NCBI GenBank assembly: GCA_017432485.1
Contig: JAFRJB010000018.1
Location: 1,953-65,952 of the forward strand
DNA: 64,000 nucleotides
Direction of reading: 5' to 3'
Origin: Clostridia bacterium
GTDB lineage: Bacteria > Bacillota > Clostridia > Oscillospirales > Acutalibacteraceae
Translations under genes and position numbers: made by a program
Notes under the pieces: model-generated
What the model saw: only the letters and a program-made list of their open reading frames with translations
What the model was told of the DNA's origin: nothing
Databases searched by the model: none
Shown: in pieces, positions 20,599 to 61,515 of the stretch
Numbering within the stretch: the stretch's first letter is position 1
Layout: the number at the start of each line of letters is the position of its first letter

Positions 20599-20606
20599 GA
20601 GGTCTT

Positions 20607-35195: not shown

Positions 35196-35402
35196 ATGTT
35201 AAGAACCAAAAACTATTTTCTCGCTCTGAATAATGAGGAGCACAGCCTACTCCTTCGTGGTATGGAGGCGTTAAAGAATGAAATCAAAGACGGCAAAGAT
35301 ATGGAAGATTGTGTCAAAGCCGTTAATGAGCTGATTGTCAAAATCGGTCACGCAAAAACCAAAACCTTTAAGGTGGTTGACCAAAACCGCGATGCAAGAT
35401 AA
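35196..35402 (+). CDS. hypothetical small protein
   Basis: RBS AAGGGGTG. 68 aa. Ends in NRDAR. Its last codons contain the VirD4-like start. Confidence 0.6.
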   Translation: MLRTKNYFLALNNEEHSLLLRGMEALKNEIKDGKDMEDCVKAVNELIVKIGHAKTKTFKVVDQNRDAR

Positions 35403-43167: not shown

Positions 43168-43551
43168 ATGAGAGTACAAATCAATAACGAGTTTCGCGAT
43201 TACAGCGAATCCATCTTTTTCGGGCTGAACCTGCGTCAGCTCATTTTTTCTGCCTGCGCCTGCGGTGCAGCAGTCGGCTCATATTTCCTGTTAAGAAATC
43301 ATTTGAGCCTTGAAACCCTTTCTTGGTTATGCGTTTTAATCGCATCTCCCTTTGCCGCTTTAGGCTTTGTTAAGTACAACGGTATGACAGCAGAGAAAAT
43401 CTTATGGGCATGGATAAAAAGTGAAATCCTAATACCCTATGAACTCAAATTCAAGAGCAAAAATGCTTTTGAAACCCTACTCATCGAGGAAGAAGAACCC
43501 AAGAAAAAGAAACACAAAAAGGAGGAACCCAATGCCAAAAAAGAAAATTAA
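43168..43551 (+). CDS. PrgI-family conjugation membrane protein
   Basis: AAAGGAGG precedes the ATG at 43168. FGLNLRQLIFSACACGAAVGSYFLL plus a second TM helix. Confidence 0.75.
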   Translation: MRVQINNEFRDYSESIFFGLNLRQLIFSACACGAAVGSYFLLRNHLSLETLSWLCVLIASPFAALGFVKYNGMTAEKILWAWIKSEILIPYELKFKSKNAFETLLIEEEEPKKKKHKKEEPNAKKEN

Positions 43552-45850
43552 AAGAAACAAAGAGCATTTTAAAATCCCCAAATCCGTGCAAGACAGTATT
43601 CCGATTGAAGCCGCCTACAATGACGGCATTTTTCAAGTCGGCAAAAAGCGGTATTCAAAAACCTACCGATTTGCTGACATTAACTATTCCGTCGCAAGCG
43701 ATGAAGACCAGCGAGAAATGTTCCTTGACTATTCCGCTTTTCTCAATGCTTTTGATGATGAAGCGATTACAAAAATCACTATCAACAACCGCGAAGTAAA
43801 CAAAGCCTCCATTGAAAGAGAACTTCTTTTGCCGTACCGGCATGATAACCTTGACGGTTATCGCAAAGAATACAATGAAATGCTTGTTGATAAAGCGGCA
43901 ACTGCTAATTCCATTGTGCAAGAGAAATACATCACCGTTACTACCGAGAAAGAGAATGTTGATGAAGCAAAGGCATATTTCTCACAAATTGAAACAGACT
44001 TTGCTTTGCGGCTCAAAAAACTCGGCAGTAAGTTGGTAGATTTAAGTGCCAATGACAGACTTCACATTCTGCACGATTTCTACCGTGTGGGTGAAGATGA
44101 AGCATTTGATTTTGATTTAAAGGTCTGTGACAAACGAGGTCACGACTTTAAGGACTGCATTTGTCCCGACTCGTTTGAGTTTAAGCGTGACTATTTCAGA
44201 ATGGGCGATAAATTCGGCAGAGTGATTTTCTTGCGTGACTATGCTTCCGGCATATCCGACAGCTTTATATCTAAACTCACTTCTCTCAACCGAAACTTAA
44301 TGCTTTCGATTGATGTGGAACCGATTGCGGCTCACGAAGCCGTTAAAAAGGTGGAAAAAACCTTACTCGGCATCAACACCGAAATCACGAATTGGAAACG
44401 CAAGCAATCTTCCAACGGTAACTATGGTGCCGACATTCCCTATGATATGGCAGCGCGCAAAGAAAAAGTTGAAGATTTGCTCAATGACTTAAATGACCGT
44501 GACCAAAAGATGTTTATGTGTGTTCTGACAATGGTCATCACTGCCGATTCTATGGAGCAGTTAAACATTGACACCAAGCAAATCTTTATGACAGCACAAG
44601 GCGAAAACTGCCAAATGGGAAAACTCACATTCCAACAGTATGAGGGACTTCGCACAGTTCTTCCCATCGGTCAATGTGAGATTGAAAGCAAGAGAACATT
44701 AACGAGTGAATCCCTTGCAGTGCTGATGCCGTTTAGAGTGCAGGATATTCGCCACAATAACGGTATCTATTACGGTCTTAACCCTATTAGCAAAAACCTG
44801 ATTCTTATCAACCGCGCGGAACTTTTAAACGGTAACGGCTTTATTCTCGGTGTGCCCGGCGGTGGTAAATCCTTCACGGCTAAAGGCGAAATTTTTGCAG
44901 AAGTGCTTGCAGGGCAAGCAGATATTATCATCATTGATCCCGAGAGAGAATACTCGCCGCTTGTCAAAGCACTTGGCGGTGAAGTTATCCCCATCTCTGC
45001 TAACTCCGACTTCCATATCAATGCTCTTGATATGAACAAAGATTACGATGAAAGCGCAAACCCGATTGCACTCAAATCGCAGTTTATTATGTCGCTTTGT
45101 CAGCAGATTATGGGCAATATGGATGTCAATGCAAAGCATCGCTCCATTATTGATAATTGCGCTATTAATGTGTATAAGGACTTCATCGCCAATGGATACA
45201 GAGGAAAAGCACCAACATTGGTTGATTTCAGAAACGAACTGATTAAACGAAGCGAAGATGAAGCACAGGATATGGCGCTGGCTTTAGAACTCTTTACAGA
45301 GGGTTCACTCAACACCTTTGCACAGCCGACCAATGTGGACACCGACAACCGCCTTATCTGCTATGACATTCTTGACTTGGGCAAACAGTTAATGCCTATC
45401 GGTATGTTAGTCATTCTTGACAGTATCCTAAACCGTGTTACTTCCAACAGAGCAAGAGGAAAGAAAACCTACATCTTCATAGATGAAATCTACTTGTTAT
45501 TCGAGTATGAATACAGTGCCAATTTCCTGTTTACTCTTTGGAAGCGCGTGAGAAAGTACGGTGCATATGCAACCGGTATTACACAGAATGTGGAAGATTT
45601 GTTGCAAAGCCATACCGCCCGTTCAATGCTTTCCAATTCCGAATTGATTGTGATGCTCAATCAGGCATCAACCGACAGATTGGAACTTGCAAAACTGCTC
45701 GGCATCTCGGATGAGGAAATGAAGTATATCACCAATGTGGATGCCGGTAACGGACTGATTAAGATAGGCAGCTCGCTTGTGCCGTTTGAAAACAAATTCC
45801 CGCATAATTCACTCTATAAACTCATGTCAACAAAACCGGGAGAGTCTTAA
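43532..45850 (+). CDS. VirB4-like conjugal transfer ATPase (CD1110-type)
   Basis: AAGGAGG precedes the ATG at 43532. Walker A GVPGGGKSF, Walker B IFIDEIYLL. Confidence 0.9.
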   Translation: MPKKKIKRNKEHFKIPKSVQDSIPIEAAYNDGIFQVGKKRYSKTYRFADINYSVASDEDQREMFLDYSAFLNAFDDEAITKITINNREVNKASIERELLLPYRHDNLDGYRKEYNEMLVDKAATANSIVQEKYITVTTEKENVDEAKAYFSQIETDFALRLKKLGSKLVDLSANDRLHILHDFYRVGEDEAFDFDLKVCDKRGHDFKDCICPDSFEFKRDYFRMGDKFGRVIFLRDYASGISDSFISKLTSLNRNLMLSIDVEPIAAHEAVKKVEKTLLGINTEITNWKRKQSSNGNYGADIPYDMAARKEKVEDLLNDLNDRDQKMFMCVLTMVITADSMEQLNIDTKQIFMTAQGENCQMGKLTFQQYEGLRTVLPIGQCEIESKRTLTSESLAVLMPFRVQDIRHNNGIYYGLNPISKNLILINRAELLNGNGFILGVPGGGKSFTAKGEIFAEVLAGQADIIIIDPEREYSPLVKALGGEVIPISANSDFHINALDMNKDYDESANPIALKSQFIMSLCQQIMGNMDVNAKHRSIIDNCAINVYKDFIANGYRGKAPTLVDFRNELIKRSEDEAQDMALALELFTEGSLNTFAQPTNVDTDNRLICYDILDLGKQLMPIGMLVILDSILNRVTSNRARGKKTYIFIDEIYLLFEYEYSANFLFTLWKRVRKYGAYATGITQNVEDLLQSHTARSMLSNSELIVMLNQASTDRLELAKLLGISDEEMKYITNVDAGNGLIKIGSSLVPFENKFPHNSLYKLMSTKPGES

Positions 45851-48353: not shown

Positions 48354-48560
48354 ATGAAAAAACATATTATTATTGAAAAATCAAAAAAATATGTATTAAC
48401 TAATCAAGAACTTGTACCAGCCGGGTGTTCATACAATTCAAAAGGTGGCTTTTGGGTAGATGATTCTTCAAATATTGCTATGATGAGAAGTCTTAATTTT
48501 GAATTAGCAGCGACTAAAAAGTGTGATATTGAGACTGGAGAGGATCAAAAAGGTGAATGA
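48354..48560 (+). CDS. candidate graspetide (omega-ester/amide RiPP) precursor peptide
   Basis: RBS AAAGGAGG. 68 aa. C-terminal tail ATKKCDIETGEDQKGE is rich in Thr/Lys donors and Asp/Glu acceptors. Its last codons overlap the ATP-grasp start. Confidence 0.55.
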   Translation: MKKHIIIEKSKKYVLTNQELVPAGCSYNSKGGFWVDDSSNIAMMRSLNFELAATKKCDIETGEDQKGE

Positions 48561-49497
48561 TATTGAATACTTAGTCATTGCTTCTTCTGTTGATTTCTCT
48601 ACGGATCTTATTTGCATGGAATTGCAAGAAAGGCAAAAAAAGTATATCCGATTAAATCGTGACAGATTTGAAGAATATGAGATATCTTATTCACTGCAGA
48701 ATCAAGTAATGACCATTAGAGTGGAAGAAACAACATATACTATCAAGAACGAGAATCTTAAGGGAATATACTTTAGGGCTCCTGTTTTTTTACGTTCTCA
48801 CAAAAGTTATAGTATAGACAAACAATTATATAGAAGTCAATGGAGTTCATTTATTAGGAATTTAATTGTTTTTGAAAGAGCGAAATGGATTAATCACCCG
48901 GTGAATACATATCGTGCAGAGAATAAGCTATTTCAGCTTCAATGTGCAAAAAATGTGGGATTGTTAACGCCGAAAACACATATTGGAAATGTATTACCTC
49001 AAACAATAATACCCACTAATAATTATATAGTGAAGTCTTTGGATACTGCGTTGTTTTATAATGAAATTCAAGAATACTTCACATATACTTCAGTTGTTAG
49101 CGGCAAAGAACTTTTAGAATCGAATATCAAAGATGCACCTATTATTTTACAAGAATTCCTTGAAGATAAGCTGGATATAAGGGTGACGGTCATTGGAAAC
49201 AAGTTATATCCAGTTTCCATAACAAAAAATGGCGAAAACATATATGGAGATTGGAGAAAGAATTCAAAAGATGTTTTAAATTATGAGTCAATAGAATTAC
49301 CTGTTGATATTTCTACGAATATAGTCAAATTAATGGAACAGCTGGGGCTCGTGTTTGGTGGTATTGATTTAGCTTTAGCGAATGGAAATTACTACTTTAT
49401 TGAAGTTAACCCTACCGGTGAATGGGGATGGTTACGTCAATATGGATCTATACCACTTGAAGAAGCTATTGTAAATAAATTAGTTGGTGAAACATAA
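48553..49497 (+). CDS. MvdC/MvdD-type ATP-grasp peptide maturase
   Basis: GTG at 48553 follows GGAGAGGA. VNDIEYLVIASSVDFSTD..., NKLFQLQCAKNVGLLTP, GDWRK, YYFIEVNPTGEWGWL. Collinear with microviridin ligase motifs as I remember them. Confidence 0.7.
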   Translation: MNDIEYLVIASSVDFSTDLICMELQERQKKYIRLNRDRFEEYEISYSLQNQVMTIRVEETTYTIKNENLKGIYFRAPVFLRSHKSYSIDKQLYRSQWSSFIRNLIVFERAKWINHPVNTYRAENKLFQLQCAKNVGLLTPKTHIGNVLPQTIIPTNNYIVKSLDTALFYNEIQEYFTYTSVVSGKELLESNIKDAPIILQEFLEDKLDIRVTVIGNKLYPVSITKNGENIYGDWRKNSKDVLNYESIELPVDISTNIVKLMEQLGLVFGGIDLALANGNYYFIEVNPTGEWGWLRQYGSIPLEEAIVNKLVGET

Positions 49498-49498
49498 A

Positions 49499-50362
49499 AT
49501 GAAAAGAATCATTCAGTCAATAATCGAACAAATATTTCCCTCTATTTCTATAAGTAAGGCAAATAAACTACTTAAAAAGAAGATAAACAGCGAAAAAAGC
49601 CAAAGCAATGTTTCTGCTAAGGAAAATTTCGATGTAATTCCAATTGAAAATTTTAGGCAGAAATACACCGAAACATTTAATATTAAAAGCAAGTTTGAAG
49701 AAAAAGCAAAAACAAATGTGGTTGGTATCACAATTGCTATTACCATAATAATGGGAGCCTCTGGACTAATCGACTCGCTTATTAGAAAGTACACAAGCGT
49801 CCCCCTTCATTGGATATCCTTTGTTCTTCTTTCAGTATCTATTATTTATTTACTCGTTTCTGGCATCGATGCTATCAGAGTTCTTTTTAATGAAAATACA
49901 ATGTCAATAGTTGACTTGCCTGATTTGTCTGCAGATGATATTGGAACAAAAGAAAAATATGATGATTATACAAACAGGAATATTAATCGAAATATAGTTA
50001 GAAACAATATTGTATATTCATCATATATTTGCATTAGAAACGCTTTAATCTGTATGATGGTTCTTTTTATTCTTGTATCAATTCCATTTTCGGATATTAG
50101 AGAGGAAGTTGATACTGGGATGGTTACCAACAATTCTTCAATATCTTATTCCTCAGACATAATTATTCCCGATCGAATATCTCGTTCTACAATAAACAAT
50201 AATATTACTATTGATAAATCCACCAGAGAAGATATCAAAGACGGAGAAACATATACTTTTGTAAACATGGAAGAAAAATTTCTTGTGAAATATAAGTGTG
50301 TTGGAACTAATATTATTGTCCAAACCTTTTCCACTTTTGATAAGATAATAAATAATCAATAA
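49499..50362 (+). CDS. hypothetical membrane protein (about 3 TM helices)
   Basis: The ATG lies 1 nt after the ATP-grasp stop. An imperfect hairpin follows at about 50372-50410. Confidence 0.6.
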   Translation: MKRIIQSIIEQIFPSISISKANKLLKKKINSEKSQSNVSAKENFDVIPIENFRQKYTETFNIKSKFEEKAKTNVVGITIAITIIMGASGLIDSLIRKYTSVPLHWISFVLLSVSIIYLLVSGIDAIRVLFNENTMSIVDLPDLSADDIGTKEKYDDYTNRNINRNIVRNNIVYSSYICIRNALICMMVLFILVSIPFSDIREEVDTGMVTNNSSISYSSDIIIPDRISRSTINNNITIDKSTREDIKDGETYTFVNMEEKFLVKYKCVGTNIIVQTFSTFDKIINNQ

Positions 50363-50642
50363 ACTCTATCAAACAAATCCGGGTTGCCTCTTTATTGAGA
50401 CAACCCGAATTATTATTTACTTAGAACTGTTGAATTGTAATAGAAGAAAATACTGTCTGTTGTTTATTATAATATTTTTTCTTTTCAACTAGTGTGTAAC
50501 TAATACCTGTTTTATTATATATATGGTTATATTAACAAAAAGACAAAAAGCAACACGCTTTTTTATTAATATTCTTCTCATTCGTTTTAATGCAGCAAAT
50601 GTTAACTAATAGATACCAAATGTGAACATTTTATAACAAATA

Positions 50643-50671
50643 TTGACAAAATAATATGTTTTATTTATTAT
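50643..50671 (+). promoter_or_regulatory. sigma-A-type promoter for the TIR-like/ThyA-like operon
   Basis: TTGACA, 17 nt spacer, TATTAT, 27 nt upstream of the start at 50698. Confidence 0.5.
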
Positions 50672-50697: not shown

Positions 50698-51156
50698 ATG
50701 GCTGATAATGCAAAGAACATTTTCGTTTCACATCACCATACGGATGCTGAAAGTATTGAAAAGTTAAAGGATCTACTATCAAAAAATGGATTAACTATGA
50801 GAGACAGTTCTATCTATGAATCGAAATCCCAGAATAATGCTCATAACGAAGAATATATCAAAAGTTTAATTCGTCCACAAATTAATTGGGCAGGAGAAAT
50901 TATTGTACTTATAGGGAGTAATACCGCCAAAAGTGACTGGGTTGATTGGGAAATAGAAGCTGCGGCAAAAAAAGACAAGCGTATTATAGGTGTCTATCTT
51001 CCAGGTGAAAAGGATGCAGAATTATCAGACGCATTCAACACTTATGCTGACTCGCTCATCGGCTGGGACTCCTCATCAATAATTGACGCATTAAATGGCG
51101 AAGATATTTGGGTTGGTCCAGCTCGCAATAACATGATTCAAGGAGTTAATTGTTAA
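50698..51156 (+). CDS. ThsB-type TIR-like domain protein (DUF1863/MTH538-like)
   Basis: RBS GAGAGGTG. NIFVSHHHTDAESIEKLKDLL ... IIVLIGSNTAKSDWVDWEIEAAAKKDKRIIGVYLPG (the WVxWEI motif). Confidence 0.65.
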   Translation: MADNAKNIFVSHHHTDAESIEKLKDLLSKNGLTMRDSSIYESKSQNNAHNEEYIKSLIRPQINWAGEIIVLIGSNTAKSDWVDWEIEAAAKKDKRIIGVYLPGEKDAELSDAFNTYADSLIGWDSSSIIDALNGEDIWVGPARNNMIQGVNC

Positions 51157-51785
51157 AACCAATGAAAATATATTCATATAAAATTACAAGAGATTTTGGT
51201 TTTGCACCTAACCCATACTTTGGTATTTGTACATTAGCGACATGTAAACCTGATATTCGAAAATTGGCAAATGAGGGTGACTGGATAATCGGATTTGGAG
51301 GAAAAAACACAAATGCTTATCATAAAATTGTCTATTTAATGGAAGTGTCCGAGGTGATAAGCTTTGAACAATATTGGATTGATGAGAGATTTGTTCAAAA
51401 AAGACCAAGATTTGATAAAAACTTAAAATACTGCTATGGAGATAATATTTATCATAAAAACGCACAAGGCGAATGGATTCAAGAGCAGTCTCATCACAGC
51501 AATGGCATAGAGATTAATCCTAATAATTTAAAAAGGGACACTGGCAGAACTACAAATGTCCTAATATCAACAAACTATTGGTACTTTGGTGATGATGCAA
51601 TTAATACGCCTTCTGACTTTGCCGCCTTTTTCCCTGAATGTAGAAATTACAGAATATTTCAATCAGAGGAAGATATAAGACAATTTTTACTTCTTAAAAA
51701 CCATATTGAGAATAACTATGAGAGGGGTATGAATGGTCTTCCCTTCTCCCAAAAAGGAAAATTTATACAATATAAAGGTGAATAA
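51150..51785 (+). CDS. Nmad2-like (nucleotide modification associated domain 2) protein
   Basis: MKIYSYKITRDFGFAPNPYFGICTLATCKPDIRKLANEGDWIIGFGG matches my memory of the Nmad2 N-terminal signature. Start is TTG at 51150 (4 nt after AAGGAG) or ATG at 51162. Overlaps the TIR-like gene. Confidence 0.5.
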   Translation: MLKPMKIYSYKITRDFGFAPNPYFGICTLATCKPDIRKLANEGDWIIGFGGKNTNAYHKIVYLMEVSEVISFEQYWIDERFVQKRPRFDKNLKYCYGDNIYHKNAQGEWIQEQSHHSNGIEINPNNLKRDTGRTTNVLISTNYWYFGDDAINTPSDFAAFFPECRNYRIFQSEEDIRQFLLLKNHIENNYERGMNGLPFSQKGKFIQYKGE

Positions 51786-51788
51786 AAC

Positions 51789-52757
51789 TTGGAATACTTT
51801 AAAAAACACTATTTAAAAACAACACCGGTATTTGACACATATTGGAAGTTTGCTTGTGAACGACAAAACATTTTTATAAAAAAAAACAATGGTGAGCCAT
51901 CACCATGGACAAATGATCCTATACTGCAAACTTATAAATTTACAAACGCTTACAGAGCAAGTGACCGAGTAAGCCAATACTTAATTAAAGATGTAATATA
52001 TTCATATTCAGGAAATGATGAAGACTTATTGTTCAGAATTCTTCTATTTAAGATATTTAACAAAATTGAAACATGGAATTATTTATTAGAAAACATCGGA
52101 GAAATCAGTTATCATACATATAAAAGAAGTCAGTATTCATCTCTTCTTAATGATTTAAGAGAGAAAAAAACCGCAATATATTCAGGTGCATATATTATGG
52201 CATCAGGAATAAATGAGTTTGGGAATAGAAAAAAATATGAAAACCATCTTGATTTATTGGAACTGATGTTTAAAGATAATTTGTTGCTGAGAATTAATCA
52301 ATGCAAATCATTGGAAGAATTATACTGTTTATTGCTTAATTATCCAACAATTGGCACTTTTCTGGCATATCAATATACTATTGATATAAACTATAGTGAA
52401 ATATGTGACTTCGATGAGATGGAATTTGTTGTCGCCGGTCCAGGAGCTAAATCAGGTATACTGAAATGCTTTAAAGATACTGACTCTCTTAGTGAATCAG
52501 AAGTCATTCGGTTTATGTGTGAAAACCAAGAACAAGAATTTAATAAAAGAGGCCTTGATTTTAAATATTTATTCGGAAGAAAATTGCAACTAATTGATTG
52601 TCAAAACCTCTTCTGTGAAACCGACAAATATGCACGAGTTCTTCATCCTGAATATATTGGCACTTCAAGTAGAAAAAGAATAAAACAAAAATACAGTACA
52701 AACAAAAATGCAATCGAATTCTTTTACCCTCCAAAATGGGGATTGACAATGAGGTAA
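51789..52757 (+). CDS. alpha-glutamyl/putrescinyl-thymine pyrophosphorylase (aGPT-Pplase)-like DNA base hypermodification protein
   Basis: TTG start after AAAGGTGA. YWKFACERQNIFIKKNNGEPSPWTNDPILQTYKFTNAYRASDRVSQYL, GTFLAYQYTIDINY and VVAGPGAKSG, assigned from memory. No P-loop is present. Confidence 0.45.
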   Translation: MEYFKKHYLKTTPVFDTYWKFACERQNIFIKKNNGEPSPWTNDPILQTYKFTNAYRASDRVSQYLIKDVIYSYSGNDEDLLFRILLFKIFNKIETWNYLLENIGEISYHTYKRSQYSSLLNDLREKKTAIYSGAYIMASGINEFGNRKKYENHLDLLELMFKDNLLLRINQCKSLEELYCLLLNYPTIGTFLAYQYTIDINYSEICDFDEMEFVVAGPGAKSGILKCFKDTDSLSESEVIRFMCENQEQEFNKRGLDFKYLFGRKLQLIDCQNLFCETDKYARVLHPEYIGTSSRKRIKQKYSTNKNAIEFFYPPKWGLTMR

Positions 52758-52761
52758 TACT

Positions 52762-53772
52762 ATGGCTTTTTTTTATGAAGGTGATACAATAAATGAAATT
52801 TTCAATAAAATCTATCACTCATTTGAAACTTCTAAAAATATAACTATTCCGAGCCAAAGAGGCGATACCATAGAAAAACTCCATTCAATAATTTCTTTAC
52901 ATAATCCTCAACAAAGATGGTTAACGATACGAAAACCTAGTATTAGCCTTGCATATGTCTTTGCAGAACTAATTATTCTTTTGAGCGGAAATAATGAAGC
53001 TAAAATTATTAATAGTTGGAATCCTTCGCTACCAAAGTTTCAAGGCGATTATCAAAAATATCCCGGTTCCTATGGAAACAGATTAAAATACCAGTTTGGA
53101 TTTGATCAACTTGAGCAAGCCTACAGTGCACTCTTACATGAACCCTCATCTAGACAAATTGTTCTTAGCATTTGGAAGCCTGACCTTGATTTGCCAAAAA
53201 CACAAGGGATCCCCAACAGTATGGACATTCCTTGTAATGTGATTTCTATGCTGAAAATTCGCGACAATAAATTACACTGGTCTCAAATAATGAGGAGTAA
53301 CGATTTTTATCTAGGTCTTCCTTATGATGTTATTCTGTTTTCCTTATTGCAAGAAGTTTTCGCCGGATGGTTGGAAATTGAATTAGGTGAATACTCACAT
53401 TTTTGTGATAGTTTACATTACTATGTCAATAAAAAAATGAACATTGCTGAAACTGATGATTCAACTTTTCAAATTGAAGATTTACGTCTAAAAAAATCAG
53501 AATACGATAAAGCATTTCCAATCCTTTATAGTTACTTTACGTCTTTAAGTGATAATGAGAAAGTAGAAAATGAGGTTGAAATGATAATTAATTCACCAAT
53601 AACTCTTCCTAAATCATATGATAATATTTTAATGATATTATGTCTTTATAAATCTTTCAAAGAAACGAGAAATAGCAATCATTTCGATATTTGCATGAAA
53701 CGGTGTTCAAATGAATTATATAAATCATTGTTCATAAATTGGATGTCTGAACAAAAAAAGGATAAGGAGTAA
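52762..53772 (+). CDS. thymidylate-synthase-superfamily pyrimidine hydroxymethylase/methylase with Asp at the base-discriminating position
   Basis: Collinear with ThyA: IPCNV (catalytic Cys), MRSNDFYLGLPYDVILFSLL versus E. coli [20 protein letters not shown], and DSLHYYVNK versus DTHLYSNH. The Asn177 equivalent is Asp. Confidence 0.8.
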   Translation: MAFFYEGDTINEIFNKIYHSFETSKNITIPSQRGDTIEKLHSIISLHNPQQRWLTIRKPSISLAYVFAELIILLSGNNEAKIINSWNPSLPKFQGDYQKYPGSYGNRLKYQFGFDQLEQAYSALLHEPSSRQIVLSIWKPDLDLPKTQGIPNSMDIPCNVISMLKIRDNKLHWSQIMRSNDFYLGLPYDVILFSLLQEVFAGWLEIELGEYSHFCDSLHYYVNKKMNIAETDDSTFQIEDLRLKKSEYDKAFPILYSYFTSLSDNEKVENEVEMIINSPITLPKSYDNILMILCLYKSFKETRNSNHFDICMKRCSNELYKSLFINWMSEQKKDKE

Positions 53773-53779
53773 TAGCGCT

Positions 53780-54397
53780 ATGAGTATTTTAAGTTTCGAA
53801 TATAGAAATTGTTCTTTAGTAATAACGTTTAGTATTTTAGCTCTTGTAATAATTACTTTATTGTTATGCGCTTTTTTTCTAATAAAGTTTTTACTTAAAA
53901 AATATTCGAAAAACAACAAACTTTCTTCAATGATTATTGATGAGGCCAAACTGGGTACCGGTAGTAACTGCATCACACTAAAATTTGACAACAGAGATAA
54001 GGAAGTCGCTTATAAGTTGTGGATTGAGATGACTACACGAAAAATTGGACTTGTTTTTGATGAGGAAAATGATGTTATTGTTGAGATTTATGATTCTTGG
54101 TATGAATTCTTTAAAATAACACGTGAATTGATTAAAGATATACCGTTTGAAAAAAAGCATACATATCAGCTAATAGAATTAACAAAAGACGTACTAAACA
54201 AAGGATTAAGACCACATTTAACAAAATGGCAAGCAAAGTATCGAAAATGGTATGCTCTCGCTGCAAAAAATTCCCAAAAAACGCCACAAGAAATTCAACG
54301 AGAATATCCAGAATACAAAGAACTTGTCAATGATTTAAAAAGAACCAATCAAAACATGCTAGAATATAGCGACTTGCTACATTCAATTTTAATGTAA
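53780..54397 (+). CDS. hypothetical N-terminally membrane-anchored helical protein
   Basis: RBS AAGGAG. TM helix VITFSILALVIITLLLCAFFLI. Last gene of the operon. Confidence 0.6.
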   Translation: MSILSFEYRNCSLVITFSILALVIITLLLCAFFLIKFLLKKYSKNNKLSSMIIDEAKLGTGSNCITLKFDNRDKEVAYKLWIEMTTRKIGLVFDEENDVIVEIYDSWYEFFKITRELIKDIPFEKKHTYQLIELTKDVLNKGLRPHLTKWQAKYRKWYALAAKNSQKTPQEIQREYPEYKELVNDLKRTNQNMLEYSDLLHSILM

Positions 54398-54434
54398 TAG
54401 TTATATAAAAAACTGTTAAAGGAATAACCTTTAA
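54397..54434. terminator. bidirectional terminator
   Basis: AAAA-AACTGTTAAAGG-AATAA-CCTTTAACAGTT-TTTT. Confidence 0.8.
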
Positions 54435-54457
54435 CAGTTTTTTATTAGCATAGTTTA

Positions 54458-55393
54458 TTATTCCAACACAGTTTTTATCAACTCTATATTTTCAAAATAA
54501 AGAAAATCACAAGAACCTTCTAATTGTATCCTATTACAATTAGTAATAAACCGCTGATTATCTGCAGCTTCTATTAACTCTACACTACAGTCTTTAATAT
54601 GTAAATTAAATAAATGCGTAGGGTTTATAGCAATCAAAATAATATTTGAAGAAATAGGGAAATAGATAAAGGTTGTATTATTTCTTAGTCCTTCTTTGAA
54701 TAAGACACACTTGTTTGTACGACTATTAACAAAATTAACCGGTGAATCACTTGTTAAAAAGCATTTCTCTTTCTTTGAGACGCAAAACAAAAAGGAGTAC
54801 TGCATCAAAGCCTCAACACAAGTTTTCAAATTATCTATATTTAGTGCGCTTCCCATTGCCGTTTCTTTAAAATAAAACTCACCGTTAAAACCATCTAAAT
54901 AATTATTACATTTCTCTGAAAGAATAAAATGATGCTTAATATCACTTAACAACTCCGGGAGATGTTCATAATAATAATTCGACATATACTTTCGAACTTT
55001 TTGTCCTCGGAATAATTGAAGCATTAAATGTATTGACAGAATCACTTTTTCATCTTGAGAGATAATAACACTGTTGTTTTGAATCAAGACATTTTCACAT
55101 GCTTGTCTAATCTTTTTTAAAAGTACGCCTAATTCTGGTTCGACTATTGTTGCATAATAATTTTCCCAATAATATTTCTCATCTATACTATTTACAGTAT
55201 AAAAATCCTTTTCCGCAGCAATGTTCTTTATTTCTGCTGGAAACACCTTTCTATTTGATTTAGAATAAACAAATATATTTGCTTTTTTTGACCCACATCC
55301 AAAATTTTTTAAGTATGTTTGTGGGACATAGTGTTGTTTTTTTGGTTTGTTCATTATTTCTAAAATATTATTGATATTGAAATAGTTCAACAC
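54458..55393 (-). CDS. DUF4238-family protein
   Basis: KKQHYVPQTYLKNFG is the DUF4238 N-terminal signature. The likely true start is the ATG at 55354 (MNKPKKQHY); the track start at 55393 is a GTG. Confidence 0.7.
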   Translation of the reverse strand: MLNYFNINNILEIMNKPKKQHYVPQTYLKNFGCGSKKANIFVYSKSNRKVFPAEIKNIAAEKDFYTVNSIDEKYYWENYYATIVEPELGVLLKKIRQACENVLIQNNSVIISQDEKVILSIHLMLQLFRGQKVRKYMSNYYYEHLPELLSDIKHHFILSEKCNNYLDGFNGEFYFKETAMGSALNIDNLKTCVEALMQYSFLFCVSKKEKCFLTSDSPVNFVNSRTNKCVLFKEGLRNNTTFIYFPISSNIILIAINPTHLFNLHIKDCSVELIEAADNQRFITNCNRIQLEGSCDFLYFENIELIKTVLE

Positions 55394-55394
55394 A

Positions 55395-55413
55395 GGATAA
55401 CTAACAATTATCT
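55395..55413 (+). promoter_or_regulatory. 19-bp dyad GGATAACTAACAATTATCT, copy 1, 16 nt upstream of the STAND-like gene
   Basis: Identical to the minus-strand sequence at 59927-59909 and similar to 61516-61534. Half-sites are GATAAY-N5-RTTATC. Confidence 0.65.
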
Positions 55414-55429
55414 ATAGTGGAGAATAAAT

Positions 55430-57901
55430 ATGAGAATTGAAGTTAACAGCATTACTAATAGAGAGCAATGTATAGATAGAATTGTAGAAGAGTGCATTCA
55501 GTCTAAATCACATTCTTATGTCTTTAGCGGTCCTGAAGGAAGCGGAAAAGAGCACTATATAAAAAAACTTTATAAAAACTTTTCACAAATAGATAATATT
55601 ACTATTTTAGAATTTATTGACGATCAATTGGTATGTAAAGAGGAAAAATACAAAACGACCAAAAATCACATAGAGATAAATGCTGCGTTTTATATTGGTA
55701 TAGCATTAAGCAAAGAAGAGAAAAACCAAAGTAACTTAAACTATATAGTCACATCTATAAATAGTATTAAAAATAGTAACATTGTGATTATGCAACCTAA
55801 TGTTGATTCTATAAGTGATTGTGCAAGAACAATACTTAGAATTATTACGAATAATAGAAACTACATAGAAAAAAACACTGGAAAATCAATATCTTTAGTA
55901 TGTTCATATGATGAGAACAATACTGTTAGGATAAATGATTTTCTTTTCGATTATACATATTCATTTAAAAACTATTCTATAAAAGATATTAACACAATTC
56001 TAATAAATACAGGGAGGATAAAGGTTGACACAATTAAGAACTATGGAAATAAAATAAAAAAACTTTATGATATTTCAAACGGCAACTTTAATCTAGTAAA
56101 TATTATTTATAAAGACATATTTCTTAGTGATATTAATTACAGTAATTCTTTATCTGAAATAGTTAAAAAGCGCATTGAGTATATTAAATTACACAAATCA
56201 AATGAGATGGTTAGTAGTAAAGATTTAGAAGATATTATTTTAACCTGCTCACTATGCGTTGACTGTTTTAACCACCAAATAATTTCATATAGTAGCAAAA
56301 AAACTAAAGAAAAAGTGTTTGAAGGATTCCAGATATATACTACGGAACGATTAATAGAGGAAAAAGCAAATCAGTATTCTTTTATCTCAGACGAAATAAA
56401 GCAAATATTAGAACAACATCAATCACTTAATAAAAGAATTTCATACATTGAATTATATAATTATTTATCTCATTTTAAATGTGATTCATATTATGAAAGA
56501 GCTTTTTATCTAATGCGATATTATAATGAAATAAATATTGATGTCTTAAGTCTTTTTATTCTTTCTGTTTCTAAATCATATATACTCGGCGAATACTGGA
56601 GAATAGAAAAAATTACAGATATGATATATAACGAACCTACAGGGTTGTTATACTATAGTGAAATATTTATACATTACATCAATGCATTTAAGTATTTTGA
56701 AAACAAAGATTATTTAAACGCCATTAAAGAACTAGACTTAATAAACGAGAATATCACGAATACTATAATCCGTACAGAAGTGAATAGATTAAGGTTTAAG
56801 TGTTACTATTATGGTGACAATACTAACAATATTGATTGTATTAAAACAATAAACAAACTAAAAAATATTGCTCAGAAAGAATTAAAGATTGAACTTGAAG
56901 AAAAATCATTTTTTTCAGTTGATGAATTCATATTGAGACTGCAAATTTTACTTGAAATTTCGCCATGCATTATAGATGATTATAACGATTGTCAAACTTT
57001 TGATGAATTATATACTTTAATTATTAGTATTTGCAGAAAGATAGAAACGGAAAATCTTTCAACATTCACAACAAATTATTTACTTAATATATTTAATAGA
57101 AAAGCTTTTTTGTTTTCAAACTCGATGGTATCAGATGTTTATTACGAGGAGGCTAAATCCTTTTTCTTTAGAAACCATATTTTAGATGAATACTGTATCA
57201 CACTGATTTGTTATGCTGGCTCCCTTTTATTCTCCTCTGAGTTTAAAAAAGCTGTGACACTCTGTAAAGAAGTAATAGATATTATTACAAAACAAAATAT
57301 AGTAATACCTACACCGGAAAAACTGTATAATAATCTTTATATTGCTGAATTTCTAAATAGAGAACAATTTTCAAGTAAACGGGAAGCAATAAAATATGGA
57401 AATATTATTTCGCAGAAACTTTATCAAATAGCAAATGAATTGTCATCGTCTCCAAGTAAAAATGTAATTCTCACAAATGTTGCATCCTTGGCCCTTTATT
57501 CTAACAATTTTAACTTGTATTCAAGAGCAAAGTGTGATATAGAAGAATCACTTAATTGTTCAGATGTGTCGAATGTACTAGATTCTAGAATTAATGATTT
57601 CTATAGATATCATTTTGCTTGGTTTGAAATATTTTTTAATATACAAAAATCCGACTGGGATAGTGTAACTGATAAATTTGCGCAAGTGGAATATTTTGTT
57701 CCTGCTTTGTTTCAGAAGACCGAAGATCTAATTCAAGAAAAAAACAAATACATAAAAGAACTAATTATCAAGAAAGAAAGTATTGATAGTTATGATTTCT
57801 GCAACAATCTTGTAAAAACAACAAATCCCAAAGCAAGTTATAATAGTCTATATTATAGAGGATTACCATTATCTGATTTACAATATACCTCATATAATTA
57901 G
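55430..57901 (+). CDS. STAND/AAA_16-like NTPase with a long TPR-like helical C-terminal region and a non-canonical Walker A
   Basis: FSGPEGSGKEHYIKKL (GxxxxGK followed by Glu rather than Ser/Thr), NIVIMQPNVD (Walker B-like), ISNGNFNLVNIIY (GNP-like). The remaining ~550 aa are helical repeats. Confidence 0.5.
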   Translation: MRIEVNSITNREQCIDRIVEECIQSKSHSYVFSGPEGSGKEHYIKKLYKNFSQIDNITILEFIDDQLVCKEEKYKTTKNHIEINAAFYIGIALSKEEKNQSNLNYIVTSINSIKNSNIVIMQPNVDSISDCARTILRIITNNRNYIEKNTGKSISLVCSYDENNTVRINDFLFDYTYSFKNYSIKDINTILINTGRIKVDTIKNYGNKIKKLYDISNGNFNLVNIIYKDIFLSDINYSNSLSEIVKKRIEYIKLHKSNEMVSSKDLEDIILTCSLCVDCFNHQIISYSSKKTKEKVFEGFQIYTTERLIEEKANQYSFISDEIKQILEQHQSLNKRISYIELYNYLSHFKCDSYYERAFYLMRYYNEINIDVLSLFILSVSKSYILGEYWRIEKITDMIYNEPTGLLYYSEIFIHYINAFKYFENKDYLNAIKELDLINENITNTIIRTEVNRLRFKCYYYGDNTNNIDCIKTINKLKNIAQKELKIELEEKSFFSVDEFILRLQILLEISPCIIDDYNDCQTFDELYTLIISICRKIETENLSTFTTNYLLNIFNRKAFLFSNSMVSDVYYEEAKSFFFRNHILDEYCITLICYAGSLLFSSEFKKAVTLCKEVIDIITKQNIVIPTPEKLYNNLYIAEFLNREQFSSKREAIKYGNIISQKLYQIANELSSSPSKNVILTNVASLALYSNNFNLYSRAKCDIEESLNCSDVSNVLDSRINDFYRYHFAWFEIFFNIQKSDWDSVTDKFAQVEYFVPALFQKTEDLIQEKNKYIKELIIKKESIDSYDFCNNLVKTTNPKASYNSLYYRGLPLSDLQYTSYN

Positions 57902-58944
57902 AACTTTGATAGTTGTACTACAACTTTATAAATATCATTATATGAGAGATTATATTGTTTAAAAATATAGCTTATTGAACTATGTTTTATCGTATATGGA
58001 GTTCCAGCAATGTCAATTAAAAAACAATTTCCATTGTAATCGATGCGAAAGTCAAATCTAGCATATGTATCAATACATAGTAATTCCGCAGATTTCTCTG
58101 CATATTCACATATACTGTCACATGTTTCTTTGCAAACATTATTTTGGAGCAAGTCAAATTCGTAGTCATAGGCGTTAGATATTTTACTGGTAATAATATC
58201 AGAGTCTTTTATTTTTATCAAAACCGGATCTAAAGCTTTATATTGGTTGTTAACTTTTAGGACTAACACCTCACACTCTAATCCAGGTATGTATTCTTGA
58301 ACCATAACACGTTCATCTTGCATATTATTAGAAATTTTAATTAAAGATTCTTCCCAGTTACTATTATTAAGAATTGTAATAATATTTTTTTCAGACATTC
58401 CGATACTGGCTGATTCGTTAATGCTTTTTATGATTACTGTTTTGCAATCTGGTTTCTTAGTGAGGAATCCTTTTTCTTTACTATAATAATAGGTTTTGGG
58501 TATAGGTATTTCAAAGTTATTAAGAAACGAAGAATAAGTAAACTTGTTTCTTAAAAGCGAAATCACAAACGCATTAGAACCAGTATATTTTATTCCTAAC
58601 AAATCACAAAATGCTGGAATTAAAGATTTTTTGCCTTCCTTTATACCATCTCTAGAAAAGTTATAAACAATTGTCTTTTCCTTTTCAATACTATTGTTTA
58701 TTGCGAAGTTAATAAACTCCATTTCAGAATAAAACACTTTAACATAGCCGAAAACACTAAAAATAGCAGAAGCTATCTCGGCAAATTCTTCTCTAGAAAA
58801 GAATTCATCCATACTGGCATGGTTATAATCCCATTTTTTAGTTTCCTTTAGGATGTTGCGGGTGTTAGCGACAATAAAAATCGTGTAGTTTTGAGCATCT
58901 TGGTTAAATTCATAAATAATATCTCTAACAATTGCATCTTTCAT
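57898..58944 (-). CDS. ATP-grasp ligase, D-Ala-D-Ala-ligase-like
   Basis: KSLIPAFCDLLGIKYTGSNAFVISLLRNKFTYSSFLNNFEIPIP, VMVQEYIPGLECEVLVL, ARFDFRIDYNGNCFLIDI. Its stop overlaps the stop of 55430..57901 by 4 nt. Confidence 0.7.
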   Translation of the reverse strand: MKDAIVRDIIYEFNQDAQNYTIFIVANTRNILKETKKWDYNHASMDEFFSREEFAEIASAIFSVFGYVKVFYSEMEFINFAINNSIEKEKTIVYNFSRDGIKEGKKSLIPAFCDLLGIKYTGSNAFVISLLRNKFTYSSFLNNFEIPIPKTYYYSKEKGFLTKKPDCKTVIIKSINESASIGMSEKNIITILNNSNWEESLIKISNNMQDERVMVQEYIPGLECEVLVLKVNNQYKALDPVLIKIKDSDIITSKISNAYDYEFDLLQNNVCKETCDSICEYAEKSAELLCIDTYARFDFRIDYNGNCFLIDIAGTPYTIKHSSISYIFKQYNLSYNDIYKVVVQLSKF

Positions 58945-58945
58945 A

Positions 58946-59890
58946 TTATTTCTCCGGTGTAAATATTGTTTCAGAATAGTATCTTGTAATTACAGTCCCC
59001 CAATTTATTTCAGATATTTTCATTGGTTTGTGTTCTAAAAAATGCTCAATATAAATCTTCATCAAATTATCTCCTGCCAGGCTACTTGCTATAGTTGTTC
59101 CACCTATTCTTAAATTTGTTTCAATATAATATGCGATTCCTTCTTTTACAATAAACTGACTATTTGAAAAGCCAGGAATATAATAATTTTGGTAAAGCTT
59201 CTTGCAAGCATCTATCAGTAATTGATTTTTCTCAATGATACATTTGTACGTAATACCATTTCTAATAGCTAACCGCCTTCTAGGAATAATATTTTTTGGA
59301 TTGCCTTCAAAATCGCAGAGAACATCTACTGTATATTCAGTTCCATCAATATAATCCTGTATAAATGAAGATTTATTAGTGTATTTTTTTATTTCATCTG
59401 TTTTTGCGTTTTTTAATACTTTAATTCCATAGCTACAGCAAGATACTTTTTCTCTAATAATAACTGGTTGGTCAATTAATACTGTCAAATTGTCATCATT
59501 ATATATGTGAGGTATTTCTAAACCTATCTTTGAAACGGCAATACTTGCATTATATTTGTTTGTAAATAAATCAACTAATTTGTTATCTACCGTTATTATC
59601 TTACTTGAGAAATATTCTGAAAATTTATTAAACCATTTTTGCTCTTCTTCTTCAGAAGAAATGATTAATTCAATATTGTGAGCCTCGCAAATCATTTTGA
59701 TTTGCATAATGTATTCATATCCTTTATCAATATCATCGGTTTTTATGAACTTATCAACTAATATGCTACCGCTGCTATAGCCATATGGTATACTTGAACA
59801 TCCAATAATAAATATAGAGGGAAGATCTCTACACATTTTTATTGCACTAACGGCATTGTGATAAGATACATTTGTAATTAAAACATTCAT
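58946..59890 (-). CDS. ATP-grasp ligase (carbamoyl-phosphate-synthase L-chain-like/ATP-grasp_4)
   Basis: The ATG at 59890 follows AAGGTAGAG (MNVLITNVSYHN). FIQDYIDGTEYTVDVLCD, YYIETNLRIGG. The track start at 59908 is a TTG. Confidence 0.7.
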   Translation of the reverse strand: MNVLITNVSYHNAVSAIKMCRDLPSIFIIGCSSIPYGYSSGSILVDKFIKTDDIDKGYEYIMQIKMICEAHNIELIISSEEEEQKWFNKFSEYFSSKIITVDNKLVDLFTNKYNASIAVSKIGLEIPHIYNDDNLTVLIDQPVIIREKVSCCSYGIKVLKNAKTDEIKKYTNKSSFIQDYIDGTEYTVDVLCDFEGNPKNIIPRRRLAIRNGITYKCIIEKNQLLIDACKKLYQNYYIPGFSNSQFIVKEGIAYYIETNLRIGGTTIASSLAGDNLMKIYIEHFLEHKPMKISEINWGTVITRYYSETIFTPEK

Positions 59891-59908
59891 TTGCTCTACC
59901 TTTATCAA

Positions 59909-59927
59909 AGATAATTGTTAGTTATCC
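59909..59927 (-). promoter_or_regulatory. 19-bp dyad GGATAACTAACAATTATCT, copy 2, in the 38-nt gap between the regulator stop and the ATP-grasp start
   Basis: The plus strand reads AGATAATTGTTAGTTATCC. It lies 18 nt upstream of the ATG at 59890 and 1 nt after the stop at 59929. Confidence 0.65.
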
Positions 59928-59928
59928 T

Positions 59929-61404
59929 TTAATAATTTATTTTGTAAACTCGATTTTTAGTCTTCCCTTCACATATGACTCTATCTTCATTAACCAATTC
60001 TAATAGATAGTCTTTTGTTCGAGAAATTCCAAGGTCAATTGCTTTAGCAACATCTATAGAAGTGGCAGATTCAATGGTAGAAAGGTATTCAAGAATCTGT
60101 TTTTTTCTTTTGTCAGATATTTTTTCCGCCGATTTTTTCCGCCGATTTTTTCCGCCGATTTTTTCCGCCGATTTTTTGTCGGCAAATTTTGTTAAATAAA
60201 GATATAATATAGATCTTTCCGGATTGAACTTTTCTTCAATCACGGGCAAAGTCCACTGCTGTTCATCCCAAACCCTAAAAATGTTCGGAATGCCACTACC
60301 GGCTCTTTCACCAACATCAATTAAACTAAACATCTTCATAAGCGTTGTGTTTCTTGGATCTGAAACACCGCCGATAACTACTTCTCTCGAATCCACTCTA
60401 AAGGTTCCCGGATTAGAAATGATAATACATTTAGGTCTTTTAACAACAACTATCCCTTGTCTACCATAATAATCGGCATTAATCAGGCAATTAGCCAAAG
60501 CTTCTCTCAAAGCTTTGTGAACAGGAGTATCTTCCACACGCAAGCCACTTTCTAATTTAAATGGGACTTTAATATCCTGTATTAATCTATTATAAACTCG
60601 AAAATAGAAATCAAAAACATTTCCGCTCCATTCACCGGAAGATGAAATGATACGATCAGTCCATCTATTATCTTGATCATACTGTTCCTGATAATCAAGA
60701 AAGTAATTACGAAATTCTCTTGTAATTTCGTACTCATTTCCAAACATTAATAATCCGGCAGCAGTGGGGTGAATATTTCCGTCTTCACCTCTACCCATAG
60801 CACCTATTCTCAACAAAAATGCGGAATCTTCAAGTGATTCCCAAACATGTCCCGGTCTGGCATATTTCATACGCATTCTATAACTATGAATAGTATCATA
60901 ATTAAACACATCTTCATTCATGCCTTCAAGAACAGTTAGATCATTCGTTTGAGCAGATGCATCTCGCAGCATTGCTTTCACTTCTTCTTGAGAACATTTA
61001 TAGTCACCATCACCATCTCTTCGATAGGTTCCGGTTAAAGGATTTCCATTGATATAAATTGGCTTGTCCGCCCTTTGAGCACGAGGGACAGAAATAACAA
61101 TAATATCTTTATTGTTAAATGTTATAACTTCAACATCTTTATTGGATAAAATGTTAATATTAACTTTACTTTGATTGTTAATGGTATTCCAAAAATCAGT
61201 TAAAATATGCTCCGCATCGTTTAACCCCACAATTTCAAATGATTTGTCAGCTTTCTCACAAACACCAAGTAAAATGGTTCCTCCTAAGGTATTTGCGAAA
61301 GAAGAATATGTCTCCCAAATGCTGTTAGGCAAACCGCCTTTAGCTTTTTTTGCTTCTAAACGGTTATTTTCTTTATACTGCTCTAAATTATCGAAATCAA
61401 TCAT
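59929..61404 (-). CDS. Schlafen/AlbA_2 domain, HATPase_c_4-like domain and C-terminal wHTH (putative transcriptional regulator)
   Basis: GGAGGAA lies 6 nt before the ATG at 61404 (MIDFDNLEQYKENNRLEAKKAKGGLPNSIWETYSSFANTLGGTILLGV). GSGIPNIF (HATPase-like). C-terminus ILEYLSTIESATSIDVAKAIDLGISRTKDYLLELV. Confidence 0.7.
   Translation of the reverse strand: MIDFDNLEQYKENNRLEAKKAKGGLPNSIWETYSSFANTLGGTILLGVCEKADKSFEIVGLNDAEHILTDFWNTINNQSKVNINILSNKDVEVITFNNKDIIVISVPRAQRADKPIYINGNPLTGTYRRDGDGDYKCSQEEVKAMLRDASAQTNDLTVLEGMNEDVFNYDTIHSYRMRMKYARPGHVWESLEDSAFLLRIGAMGRGEDGNIHPTAAGLLMFGNEYEITREFRNYFLDYQEQYDQDNRWTDRIISSSGEWSGNVFDFYFRVYNRLIQDIKVPFKLESGLRVEDTPVHKALREALANCLINADYYGRQGIVVVKRPKCIIISNPGTFRVDSREVVIGGVSDPRNTTLMKMFSLIDVGERAGSGIPNIFRVWDEQQWTLPVIEEKFNPERSILYLYLTKFADKKSAEKIGGKNRRKKSAEKISDKRKKQILEYLSTIESATSIDVAKAIDLGISRTKDYLLELVNEDRVICEGKTKNRVYKINY
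60120..60171. repeat. perfect 13-nt tandem repeat x4 (TTTTTTCCGCCGA; coding strand TCGGCGGAAAAAA) inside the regulator CDS, plus a degenerate fifth unit
   Basis: Counted base by base. CCGCCGA starts at 60126, 60139, 60152 and 60165. It encodes KKSAEKIGGKNRRKKSAEK, so each unit is read in a different frame. Confidence 0.9.
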
Positions 61405-61515
61405 TATAGATTCCTCCAATATATTTCTATTATTTATTTTAATATAAATTGGAAGCATTATCAATAATAAATTAAACATAAAGATTTTTAAACAAGTGGT
61501 GAGAATCGCAACTTG

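Follow-up and report, generated by a model that had tools for sequence, protein, structure and literature searches.

How should an operon be read that joins a gene for an immune-type TIR protein to genes for enzymes of the kind found in phage DNA hypermodification? The question is raised by five tightly packed, co-directional genes at 50698-54397 of a 64,000-nucleotide stretch of a Clostridia bacterium contig (JAFRJB010000018.1), hereafter the window, where they lie in the AT-rich cargo of a conjugative element. In order, they encode a ThsB-type TIR protein (ORF1), an Nmad2 protein (ORF2), a PF18723 protein (ORF3), a hydroxymethylase homologue of the ThyA superfamily (ORF4; thymidylate synthase homologue, TS) and a protein with a single transmembrane (TM) helix (ORF5). 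A preliminary description made from the sequence alone had presented them as a candidate undescribed base-modification system. We find that the operon very probably belongs to a family of TIR-Nmad2 anti-phage defence systems with one tested member, DS-4. That it is defence cargo in the defence-island part of the conjugative element, working along the lines proposed below, appears probable. TIR-Nmad2 systems connect TIR immune signalling with the enzymology of phage DNA hypermodification, fields that have so far stood apart.

DS-4 ('NTTI', NZ_QOYB01000018.1:32107-36002) comes from Escherichia coli and is one of the 42 validated defence systems of the DefensePredictor study (Science 2026; PMC13092281). 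Its genes encode a TS, a dNMP kinase, a PF18723 'DNA base hypermodification protein', a TIR protein and Nmad2. The window proteins match these with E-values between 2e-23 and 7e-56, at 31% identity for the TS, 28% for the PF18723 protein, 38% for the TIR protein (E = 2e-32) and 49% for Nmad2, and in both operons the TIR gene directly precedes the Nmad2 gene with the same 7-nt overlap. The same set of TS, PF18723, TIR and Nmad2 has thus already been reported as anti-phage, and the operon can no longer be called undescribed. The gene order differs: TS-kinase-PF18723-TIR-Nmad2 in DS-4, and TIR-Nmad2-PF18723-TS-TM in the window. The T4-gp1-like dNMP kinase of DS-4 (PF21448) has no counterpart in the window, the TM protein has none in DS-4, and the TS of DS-4 has Asn where that of the window has Asp. 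What is new here is therefore the TM protein, the lack of a kinase and the Asp-type hydroxymethylase. The study that reported DS-4 also points to predicted systems with aGPT-Pplase, MazG, MazG-C, NMAD and UDG domains (PMC13092281).

Profile searches of the five proteins placed the ThsB TIR, Nmad2, PF18723 and PF00303 members as first described, and agreed that no P-loop kinase is present among them. The TIR protein matches ThsB_TIR (PF08937, 2.5e-26) and the PADLOC ThsB profile PDLC00418 (8e-52). It has a catalytic-type Glu85 in a WEIE motif, and this residue is kept in 88% of 66 Nmad2-linked TIR proteins. A Cys in the terminal or penultimate position is found in 98% of the same 66; in the window it is Cys152 (51151-51153). 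ThsB proteins that are linked to TM proteins lack this C-terminal Cys. Together with the full-length alignment to the TIR protein of DS-4, the Cys places the window TIR in the Nmad2-linked subfamily and not among the TM-linked ThsB proteins.

ORF2 is a member of PF18753 (6.7e-62). Its AlphaFold2 model (AF2; pLDDT 89, pTM 0.87) was compared with the PDB using Foldseek. Nearly all top matches are ASCH, EVE and YTH domains, and the reader domains of VcaM4I and McrB-N are also found, although all the matches are weak (best E = 5e-3, TM-scores 0.34-0.45). A search of the PDB with the Nmad2 sequence profile found no relative, merely a spurious His-tag match. From the model, Nmad2 is predicted to have a PUA-like (ASCH/EVE/YTH-like) fold. 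PUA-like domains such as ASCH, EVE and YTH bind or hydrolyse modified bases. About 20 polar residues of Nmad2 are invariant. Cys27, Cys32, His115 and His116 are near-invariant, and with the C-terminal Cys of the TIR protein they could possibly make up one metal or catalytic site.

To see which genes define the system, we compared homologous loci. A scan of genomes with the single Nmad2 protein found no relatives, and an alignment-based scan was required. With the Nmad2 alignment, species-representative genomes yielded at least 572 relatives, from which 80 loci were analysed, and an exhaustive search gave ~2,100 Nmad2 representatives at 50% identity clustering; TIR-Nmad2 systems are thus widespread. 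The 80 loci come from many phyla. Their components were called with hidden Markov models made from proteins of the window and of DS-4, and all counts are lower bounds, since contig ends truncate some loci. In every one of the 80 loci a TIR gene was detected at the Nmad2 gene or beside it: the adjacent upstream gene was called in 64, and in one (L072) the two are fused. PF18723 accompanies the pair in 56 loci, a TS homologue in 28, a TM protein of the window type in 16 and a dNMP kinase of the DS-4 type in six, all of them from Enterobacterales; some loci carry thymidylate-kinase-like genes besides. As TIR and Nmad2 are near-universal while the other genes come and go, the core of the system is the TIR-Nmad2 pair and the rest is modular. 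Base modification, which the preliminary description had put at the centre, is therefore not the core, for the pair occurs without a TS in 52 loci and without PF18723 in 24.

The modular part draws on a recurrent set of further genes, which encode TIR-SLOG proteins (612-683 aa), standalone SLOG proteins, MazG with MazG_C, members of the UDG superfamily and thymidylate-kinase-like proteins. All five components of the window operon occur together in four more loci, from four distant lineages (L034, L067, L078 and L079). Among complete relatives the closest is L001 (Lachnospiraceae), which also lies downstream of an NlpC/P60 gene and has a TIR-SLOG gene in the slot held by the TM gene in the window. 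A sister architecture is seen in L013, L015, L020-L022, L037, L052, L056, L068, L069 and L080, where the TIR-Nmad2 pair is kept and the TS and PF18723 genes are replaced by a module of TIR-SLOG (~674 aa), MazG with MazG_C (~385 aa) and a UDG-superfamily protein (~220 aa). Nmad2 is also found fused to other domains: the fusions P0258, P0282, P0299 and P0373 join it to MazG-MazG_C, two TIR domains, one TIR domain and a NOV_C nuclease-like domain, respectively. A search of 50,697 phage genomes found no match to the Nmad2 subfamily, unlike homologues of PF18723 and of the TS, which are common in hypermodifying phages (503 and 660 phage records). It is therefore the cellular TIR-Nmad2 pair that recruited enzymes of phage type, and not the reverse.

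The last gene of the operon could have been taken for a passenger. Its product belongs to no Pfam, NCBIfam or PADLOC family; in the AF2 model (pLDDT 84) a TM helix at residues 19-45 is followed by helices at 71-204 that form a cytoplasmic four-helix bundle, and the model has no fold match in the PDB. SLATT, Macro and DUF2270 were considered for it, but neither profiles nor fold comparison supported any of them. Homologues number more than 1,300, and an identical copy is recorded in a metagenome-assembled genome (MAG) of a Clostridia bacterium. Among the loci L081-L091, four independent and diverse examples have a homologue directly 3' of a ThsB_TIR gene. These operons consist of two to four genes without Nmad2, TS or PF18723, and one of them adjoins McrBC. 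Such an order, in which an effector gene follows a TIR gene, is canonical for Thoeris. The TM protein is a recurrent partner of ThsB TIR proteins and the likeliest candidate for the effector, and not a passenger. Compact operons of ThsB_TIR and a TM protein (~205 aa, four-helix bundle) are abundant in human gut and other metagenomes; P0203 by itself is indexed in 283 blocks.

That ThsB and TM pairs stand alone elsewhere, and that modules are combined freely across loci, could also mean that the operon is two unrelated systems side by side: a Thoeris-like pair of ThsB and TM protein, and a separate nucleotide module of Nmad2, PF18723 and TS. We consider this improbable. The TM gene lies at the end of the operon opposite to the TIR gene, all five genes are joined by an overlap or by gaps of 3-7 nt between one promoter and one terminator, the TIR protein is of the Nmad2-linked, C-terminal-Cys subfamily and not of the kind linked to TM proteins, and four distant lineages share the same five components.

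The operon shares with Thoeris a ThsB-family TIR protein with a catalytic-type Glu, and an effector-like TM protein whose homologues pair genetically with ThsB elsewhere. Relatives of the TIR-Nmad2 system also resemble type III Thoeris, which has several TIR proteins and SLOG, in carrying TIR-SLOG or SLOG proteins and several TIR proteins. Membership in type III was nevertheless rejected, as matches to the NCBIfam model ThcB4 reach 24-52 bits and its cutoff is 220. The accessible part of a recent survey describes Thoeris types I-XI, with membrane effectors in type II (Macro-TM) and type VII (SLATT), and many TM proteins among 29 putative effector types (bioRxiv 10.64898/2025.12.03.692087). As far as that part of the survey goes, the window TM protein, which has no Macro, SLATT, DUF2270 or SLOG domain, matches no described effector type, such as SIR2-SLOG, Macro-TM, SLOG, caspase-like, DUF2270, DUF6650, SLATT or CMP hydrolase, and neither do its homologues in the compact ThsB_TIR operons; the described types, unlike the window operon, have neither an obligate Nmad2 partner nor pyrimidine-modifying enzymes; the same part makes no mention of TS, Nmad or hypermodification. 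The domains of the operon are likewise not mentioned in a survey of E. coli TIR proteins (PMC11350192), and a literature search for the names ThcA and ThcB returned cannabinoid papers only.

We propose the following scheme for the operon as a TIR-Nmad2 defence system. The ThsB-type TIR protein would act with Nmad2, its obligate partner, as a unit that senses infection and generates a signal; Nmad2 is predicted to be a PUA-like domain, and such domains read or process modified bases. The TIR protein would consume NAD+ to make a signal derived from ADP-ribose, and the single-pass four-helix-bundle protein encoded by the last gene would be the effector, arresting or killing the infected cell at the membrane. 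ORF3 and ORF4 would form an accessory module, drawn from the enzymes that phages use for hypermodification. The module would make or process a 5-hydroxymethyl-pyrimidine nucleotide or DNA base, and its product would either feed the ligand of Nmad2 or poison replicating phage DNA. Homology, domain content, linkage of the genes, conserved residues and the weak effect of DS-4 on lambda are observed, whereas the signalling, the role of the effector, the substrate and the part played by the pyrimidine enzymes are inferred from them. The Thoeris-like part of this scheme, signalling coupled to a TM effector, is put forward tentatively, at a little under an even chance.

Several observations weigh against the scheme or against its extension to the window. 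The phenotype of DS-4 consists of a single row of Table S7, for phage lambda, with a -log efficiency of plating of 0.93 and smaller plaques, and no mutants of DS-4 were made (PMC13092281). DS-4 has a kinase and lacks the TM protein, so that the window operon differs from the system that was put to the test. The fold match of Nmad2 is weak. The TIR protein could be an N-glycosidase or a plain NADase and not a signal synthase. The effector role of the TM protein is suggested by gene context alone, as no ligand-binding domain can be recognised in the protein and its model matches no structure in the PDB. There is also no model that explains why a signalling system should include constitutive pyrimidine-modifying enzymes without sensor domains.

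What these enzymes might do can be approached through their families. ORF3 matches PF18723 (1.4e-107) and no other family; in particular, it does not match the amino-acid:DNA transferase family PF18724 (ADDT, formerly aGPT-Pplase2). PF18723 is now named 'HMUDK_hel' and was formerly aGPT-Pplase1 (clade 1), the name under which a homologue in a Microbacterium phage is annotated, so that the first assignment of ORF3 as aGPT-Pplase-like was correct. Pfam divides the genes of M6-like phages into gp51 (PF18724, the transferase), gp54 (PF18748, the DNA kinase) and gp55 (PF18723), and the homologue of ORF3 in an M6-like phage occupies the position of gp55; the control proteins score as expected from this division (gp54, PF18748 7.7e-18; gp51, PF18724 6e-47). 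The name 'HMUDK_hel' was rejected as a sign of a kinase: it derives from the SP10 gp186 fusion, the sole case in which a PF18723-type domain is joined to a kinase, and the family itself corresponds to M6 gp55. A separate P-loop kinase gene lies directly upstream of the PF18723 gene in Pseudomonas phage vB_Pae_HLL23 (L085, 4423-5969), in DS-4 and in L002 (10469-12068). The kinases ahead of PF18723 differ in family, being PF18748 in M6-like phages, PF21448 in DS-4 and thymidylate-kinase-like in L002.

ORF4 matches PF00303 (4.6e-20). It is not a bona fide ThyA, as it fails every NCBIfam equivalog cutoff (the best ThyA score is 59.7 bits against a cutoff of 174.55) and has Asp at the specificity position. 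Its best match in the PDB is the CMP 5-hydroxymethylase MilA (E = 1.9e-17), to which it has low identity over the alignment 17-223. Cys158 (IPCNV) aligns with the catalytic Cys, and Asp189 (LGLPYD) with N177 of the E. coli enzyme, N229 of L. casei and the Asp of MilA, in agreement with the residues first pointed out. Swapping the residue at this position (N177D in ThyA, D179N in the T4 enzyme) exchanges specificity, Asn going with dUMP and Asp with dCMP. On this precedent, ORF4 is predicted to act on (d)CMP, and a uracil-to-cytosine switch is predicted for a few lineages. Cytosine specificity was rejected as a family trait, since 26 of the 29 TS homologues linked to the system have Asn. The three carriers of Asp are the window, L004 and L008, all from Clostridia-type MAGs, and L008 itself has very close relatives with Asn.

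ORF4 has a C-terminal helical extension, and its 26% identity to the enzyme of an M6-like phage covers residues 69-332, the extension included. Further relatives are found in SP8 and Det7 and among genes annotated 'pyrimidine hmase', from phages that make 5-hydroxymethyl-pyrimidine DNA. The dCMP hydroxymethylase T4 gp42 and MilA have the catalytic Cys and the Asp in common with ORF4. They differ from it in the C-terminal region, and the close relatives of ORF4 within the system carry Asn. The partner enzymes of gp42 and MilA, dCTPase and glucosyltransferases in the one case and MilB in the other, are missing here.

The likeness to MilA raises the question of whether the operon belongs to a nucleoside-type natural product. 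A CMP hydroxymethylase and a TIR-fold N-glycosidase would then release free 5-hydroxymethylcytosine, as in a MilA/MilB-like pathway. The TIR fold is related to glycosidases of the nucleoside 2-deoxyribosyltransferase type, MilA is the best solved relative of ORF4 and shares its Asp, and an ATP-grasp cluster of the kind that makes ribosomally synthesized and post-translationally modified peptides (RiPPs) lies upstream. Such a pathway is very improbable. The TIR protein scores as ThsB and stands with Nmad2 in a majority of loci that have no TS, 26 of the 29 TS homologues are of the uracil type, the operon holds no more biosynthetic genes, and the upstream cluster has its own terminator.

A different weighting of the same enzymes would make them the weapon. 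The hydroxymethylase, aided by dNMP kinases of the host or of the system, would flood the nucleotide pool with 5-hydroxymethyl-dC or 5-hydroxymethyl-dU nucleotides that become incorporated into replicating phage DNA, the PF18723 protein would attack the incorporated bases, and the TIR-Nmad2 pair would only sense or regulate. DS-4 and loci of the L002 type do add dNMP or thymidylate-type kinases, which act on free nucleotides, and not the PF18748 DNA kinase, and the sister loci that exchange TS and PF18723 for MazG-MazG_C and UDG again combine a pool enzyme with a glycosylase-fold enzyme. The aG/PT-PPlase fold was predicted to resemble HhH glycosylases. In the related clade-2 enzymes, a Cys and a Glu that neighbours it are both essential, and the adjacent pair Cys276-Glu277 is invariant across 32 system-linked PF18723 homologues. 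On the other side, the loci that lack PF18723 or the TS still keep TIR-Nmad2, with SLOG or TM proteins; a kinase is missing from the window; the DNA of the host, too, would be struck by constitutive production; and no activity has been demonstrated for the PF18723 homologue M6 gp55, which is dispensable in the reconstituted in vitro reaction. We judge this account to be on the unlikely side.

A more specific form of the TIR-Nmad2 scheme would make hydroxymethylated pyrimidine a requirement for immunity. The hydroxymethylase and the PF18723 protein would write 5-hydroxymethyl-C or 5-hydroxymethyl-U, either as a nucleotide or as a mark on DNA, and Nmad2 would read or process the mark and thereby gate the TIR protein. 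This is unlikely. If it were true, the system would have a 'write-then-read' arm or a modified-nucleotide co-signal, which no Thoeris type described so far has; the change from Asn to Asp would retarget the system from uracil to cytosine, and the C-terminal Cys of the TIR protein would form the TIR-Nmad2 interface with the Cys and His residues of Nmad2.

The comparison with phages also bears on whether the operon modifies DNA for protection. The thymidine hypermodification clusters of M6, ViI, SP10 and PhiW-14 (Lee et al. 2018, 2021) share with the window a ThyA homologue of the hydroxymethylase clade, including its C-terminal extension, and a PF18723 protein of the M6 gp55 or SP10 gp186C type. 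They also need two enzymes that are absent here, the 5-hmdU DNA kinase PF18748 (5-HMUDK) and the amino-acid:DNA transferase PF18724, the activities of which have been shown to suffice in vitro for phage thymidine hypermodification. Moreover, the phage clusters have an Asn-type dUMP hydroxymethylase, a phage host and no TIR or Nmad2, whereas the window has Asp, a cellular host with a conjugative element, and both TIR and Nmad2.

It had been suggested that the operon marks transferred DNA against restriction, or else that it is a defence; the evidence favours defence and lends no support to the marking. Hypermodification of cytosine in the DNA of the element or its host, guarding transferred DNA from restriction in the recipient, would fit the location on a conjugative element and the work done by the TS and PF18723 homologues in phages. 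It would, however, have to proceed without the 5-HMUDK and ADDT activities that are necessary in phage hypermodification. The invariant partners, the ThsB-type TIR protein and Nmad2, are absent from phages and accompany SLOG, TIR and TM genes of the effector type. Most homologous loci lie on chromosomes or in defence contexts, the only relative put to the test was scored as anti-phage, and nothing links Nmad2 or the TIR subfamily to functions of conjugative transfer. Self-marking is thus quite improbable. For the TIR-Nmad2 family, of which one member has been tested so far, and weakly, the window locus offers handles on mechanism: it is compact, with five genes, one gene product is a clear candidate for the effector, and the hydroxymethylase is a natural Asn-to-Asp variant in specificity. 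It also draws attention to the abundant, unnamed pairing of ThsB with four-helix-bundle TM proteins in gut bacteria.

The arrangement of the operon (see the list of features below) agrees with its first description as five co-directional reading frames with a 7-nt overlap and gaps of 3-7 nt. The overlap is that between the TIR and Nmad2 genes and holds if Nmad2 starts at TTG 51150, which has an AAGGAG Shine-Dalgarno (SD) motif 4 nt upstream; from the alternative start, ATG 51162, the gap to the TIR gene would be 5 nt and the motif 16 nt away. The remaining junctions have gaps of 3, 4 and 7 nt, each gene with an SD-like motif ahead of it. The translational coupling of TIR and Nmad2 that had been proposed was confirmed. 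The promoter described as the operon's own is the best consensus match within 48-58.2 kb (11/12), but such matches are not commoner there than in shuffles (63 observed, 65.2 in shuffles), so that the site is weak evidence on its own. It lies downstream of the hairpin terminator that closes the upstream operon. The bidirectional terminator was confirmed: its hairpin has a free energy of -23.3 kcal/mol (z = -9.1; no shuffle was as stable) and is flanked by an A-run on its upstream side and a U-run on its downstream side, and the convergent DUF4238 gene ends just past it.

Features of the operon and of the element that carries it (positions in the window)
Feature	Position	Strand	Remarks
VirD4/TraG coupling protein	35335-37191		conjugation gene
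VirB4-like ATPase	43439-45850		conjugation gene
Hairpin terminator of the upstream operon	50376-50411		
Promoter-like TTGACA-17-TATTAT	50643-50671	+	followed by SD GAGAGGTG before ATG 50698
ThsB-type TIR gene (ORF1)	50698-51156	+	152 aa
Nmad2 gene (ORF2)	51150-51785	+	211 aa from TTG 51150, or 207 aa from ATG 51162
PF18723 gene (ORF3)	51789-52757	+	322 aa
ThyA-superfamily hydroxymethylase homologue (ORF4)	52762-53772	+	336 aa
Single-pass TM protein gene (ORF5)	53780-54397	+	205 aa
Bidirectional intrinsic terminator	54398-54450	.	common to the operon and the convergent DUF4238 gene

The setting on a conjugative element is supported by the two conjugation genes and by a gene for a SpaA/T-Q-ester adhesin. 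GC content drops along the window from ~50% in the chromosomal flank (PPDK) to ~30% in the cargo. Inside the conjugation region, 20586-29240 encodes a protein of 2,884 aa that combines MutS domain I with an SNF2-type helicase.

Genes beside the operon have a defence flavour (DUF4238, Schlafen AlbA_2), which counts in favour of a TIR-Nmad2 defence system. The defence-island-like neighbours at 54458-61479 begin with the DUF4238 protein (PADLOC DUF4238-Pers, 5.6e-10), convergent on the terminator, and further include an 823-aa ATPase-like protein, an ATP-grasp protein resembling D-Ala-D-Ala ligase and a protein with Schlafen AlbA_2 and HATPase_c_4 domains. On the other side, the upstream operon (48354-50411) consists of a 68-aa reading frame, an ATP-grasp peptide maturase of the MvdC/MvdD kind (TIGR04185, 3.5e-48, under the cutoff) and a 292-aa membrane protein, and is possibly a graspetide-type RiPP cluster carried by the element.

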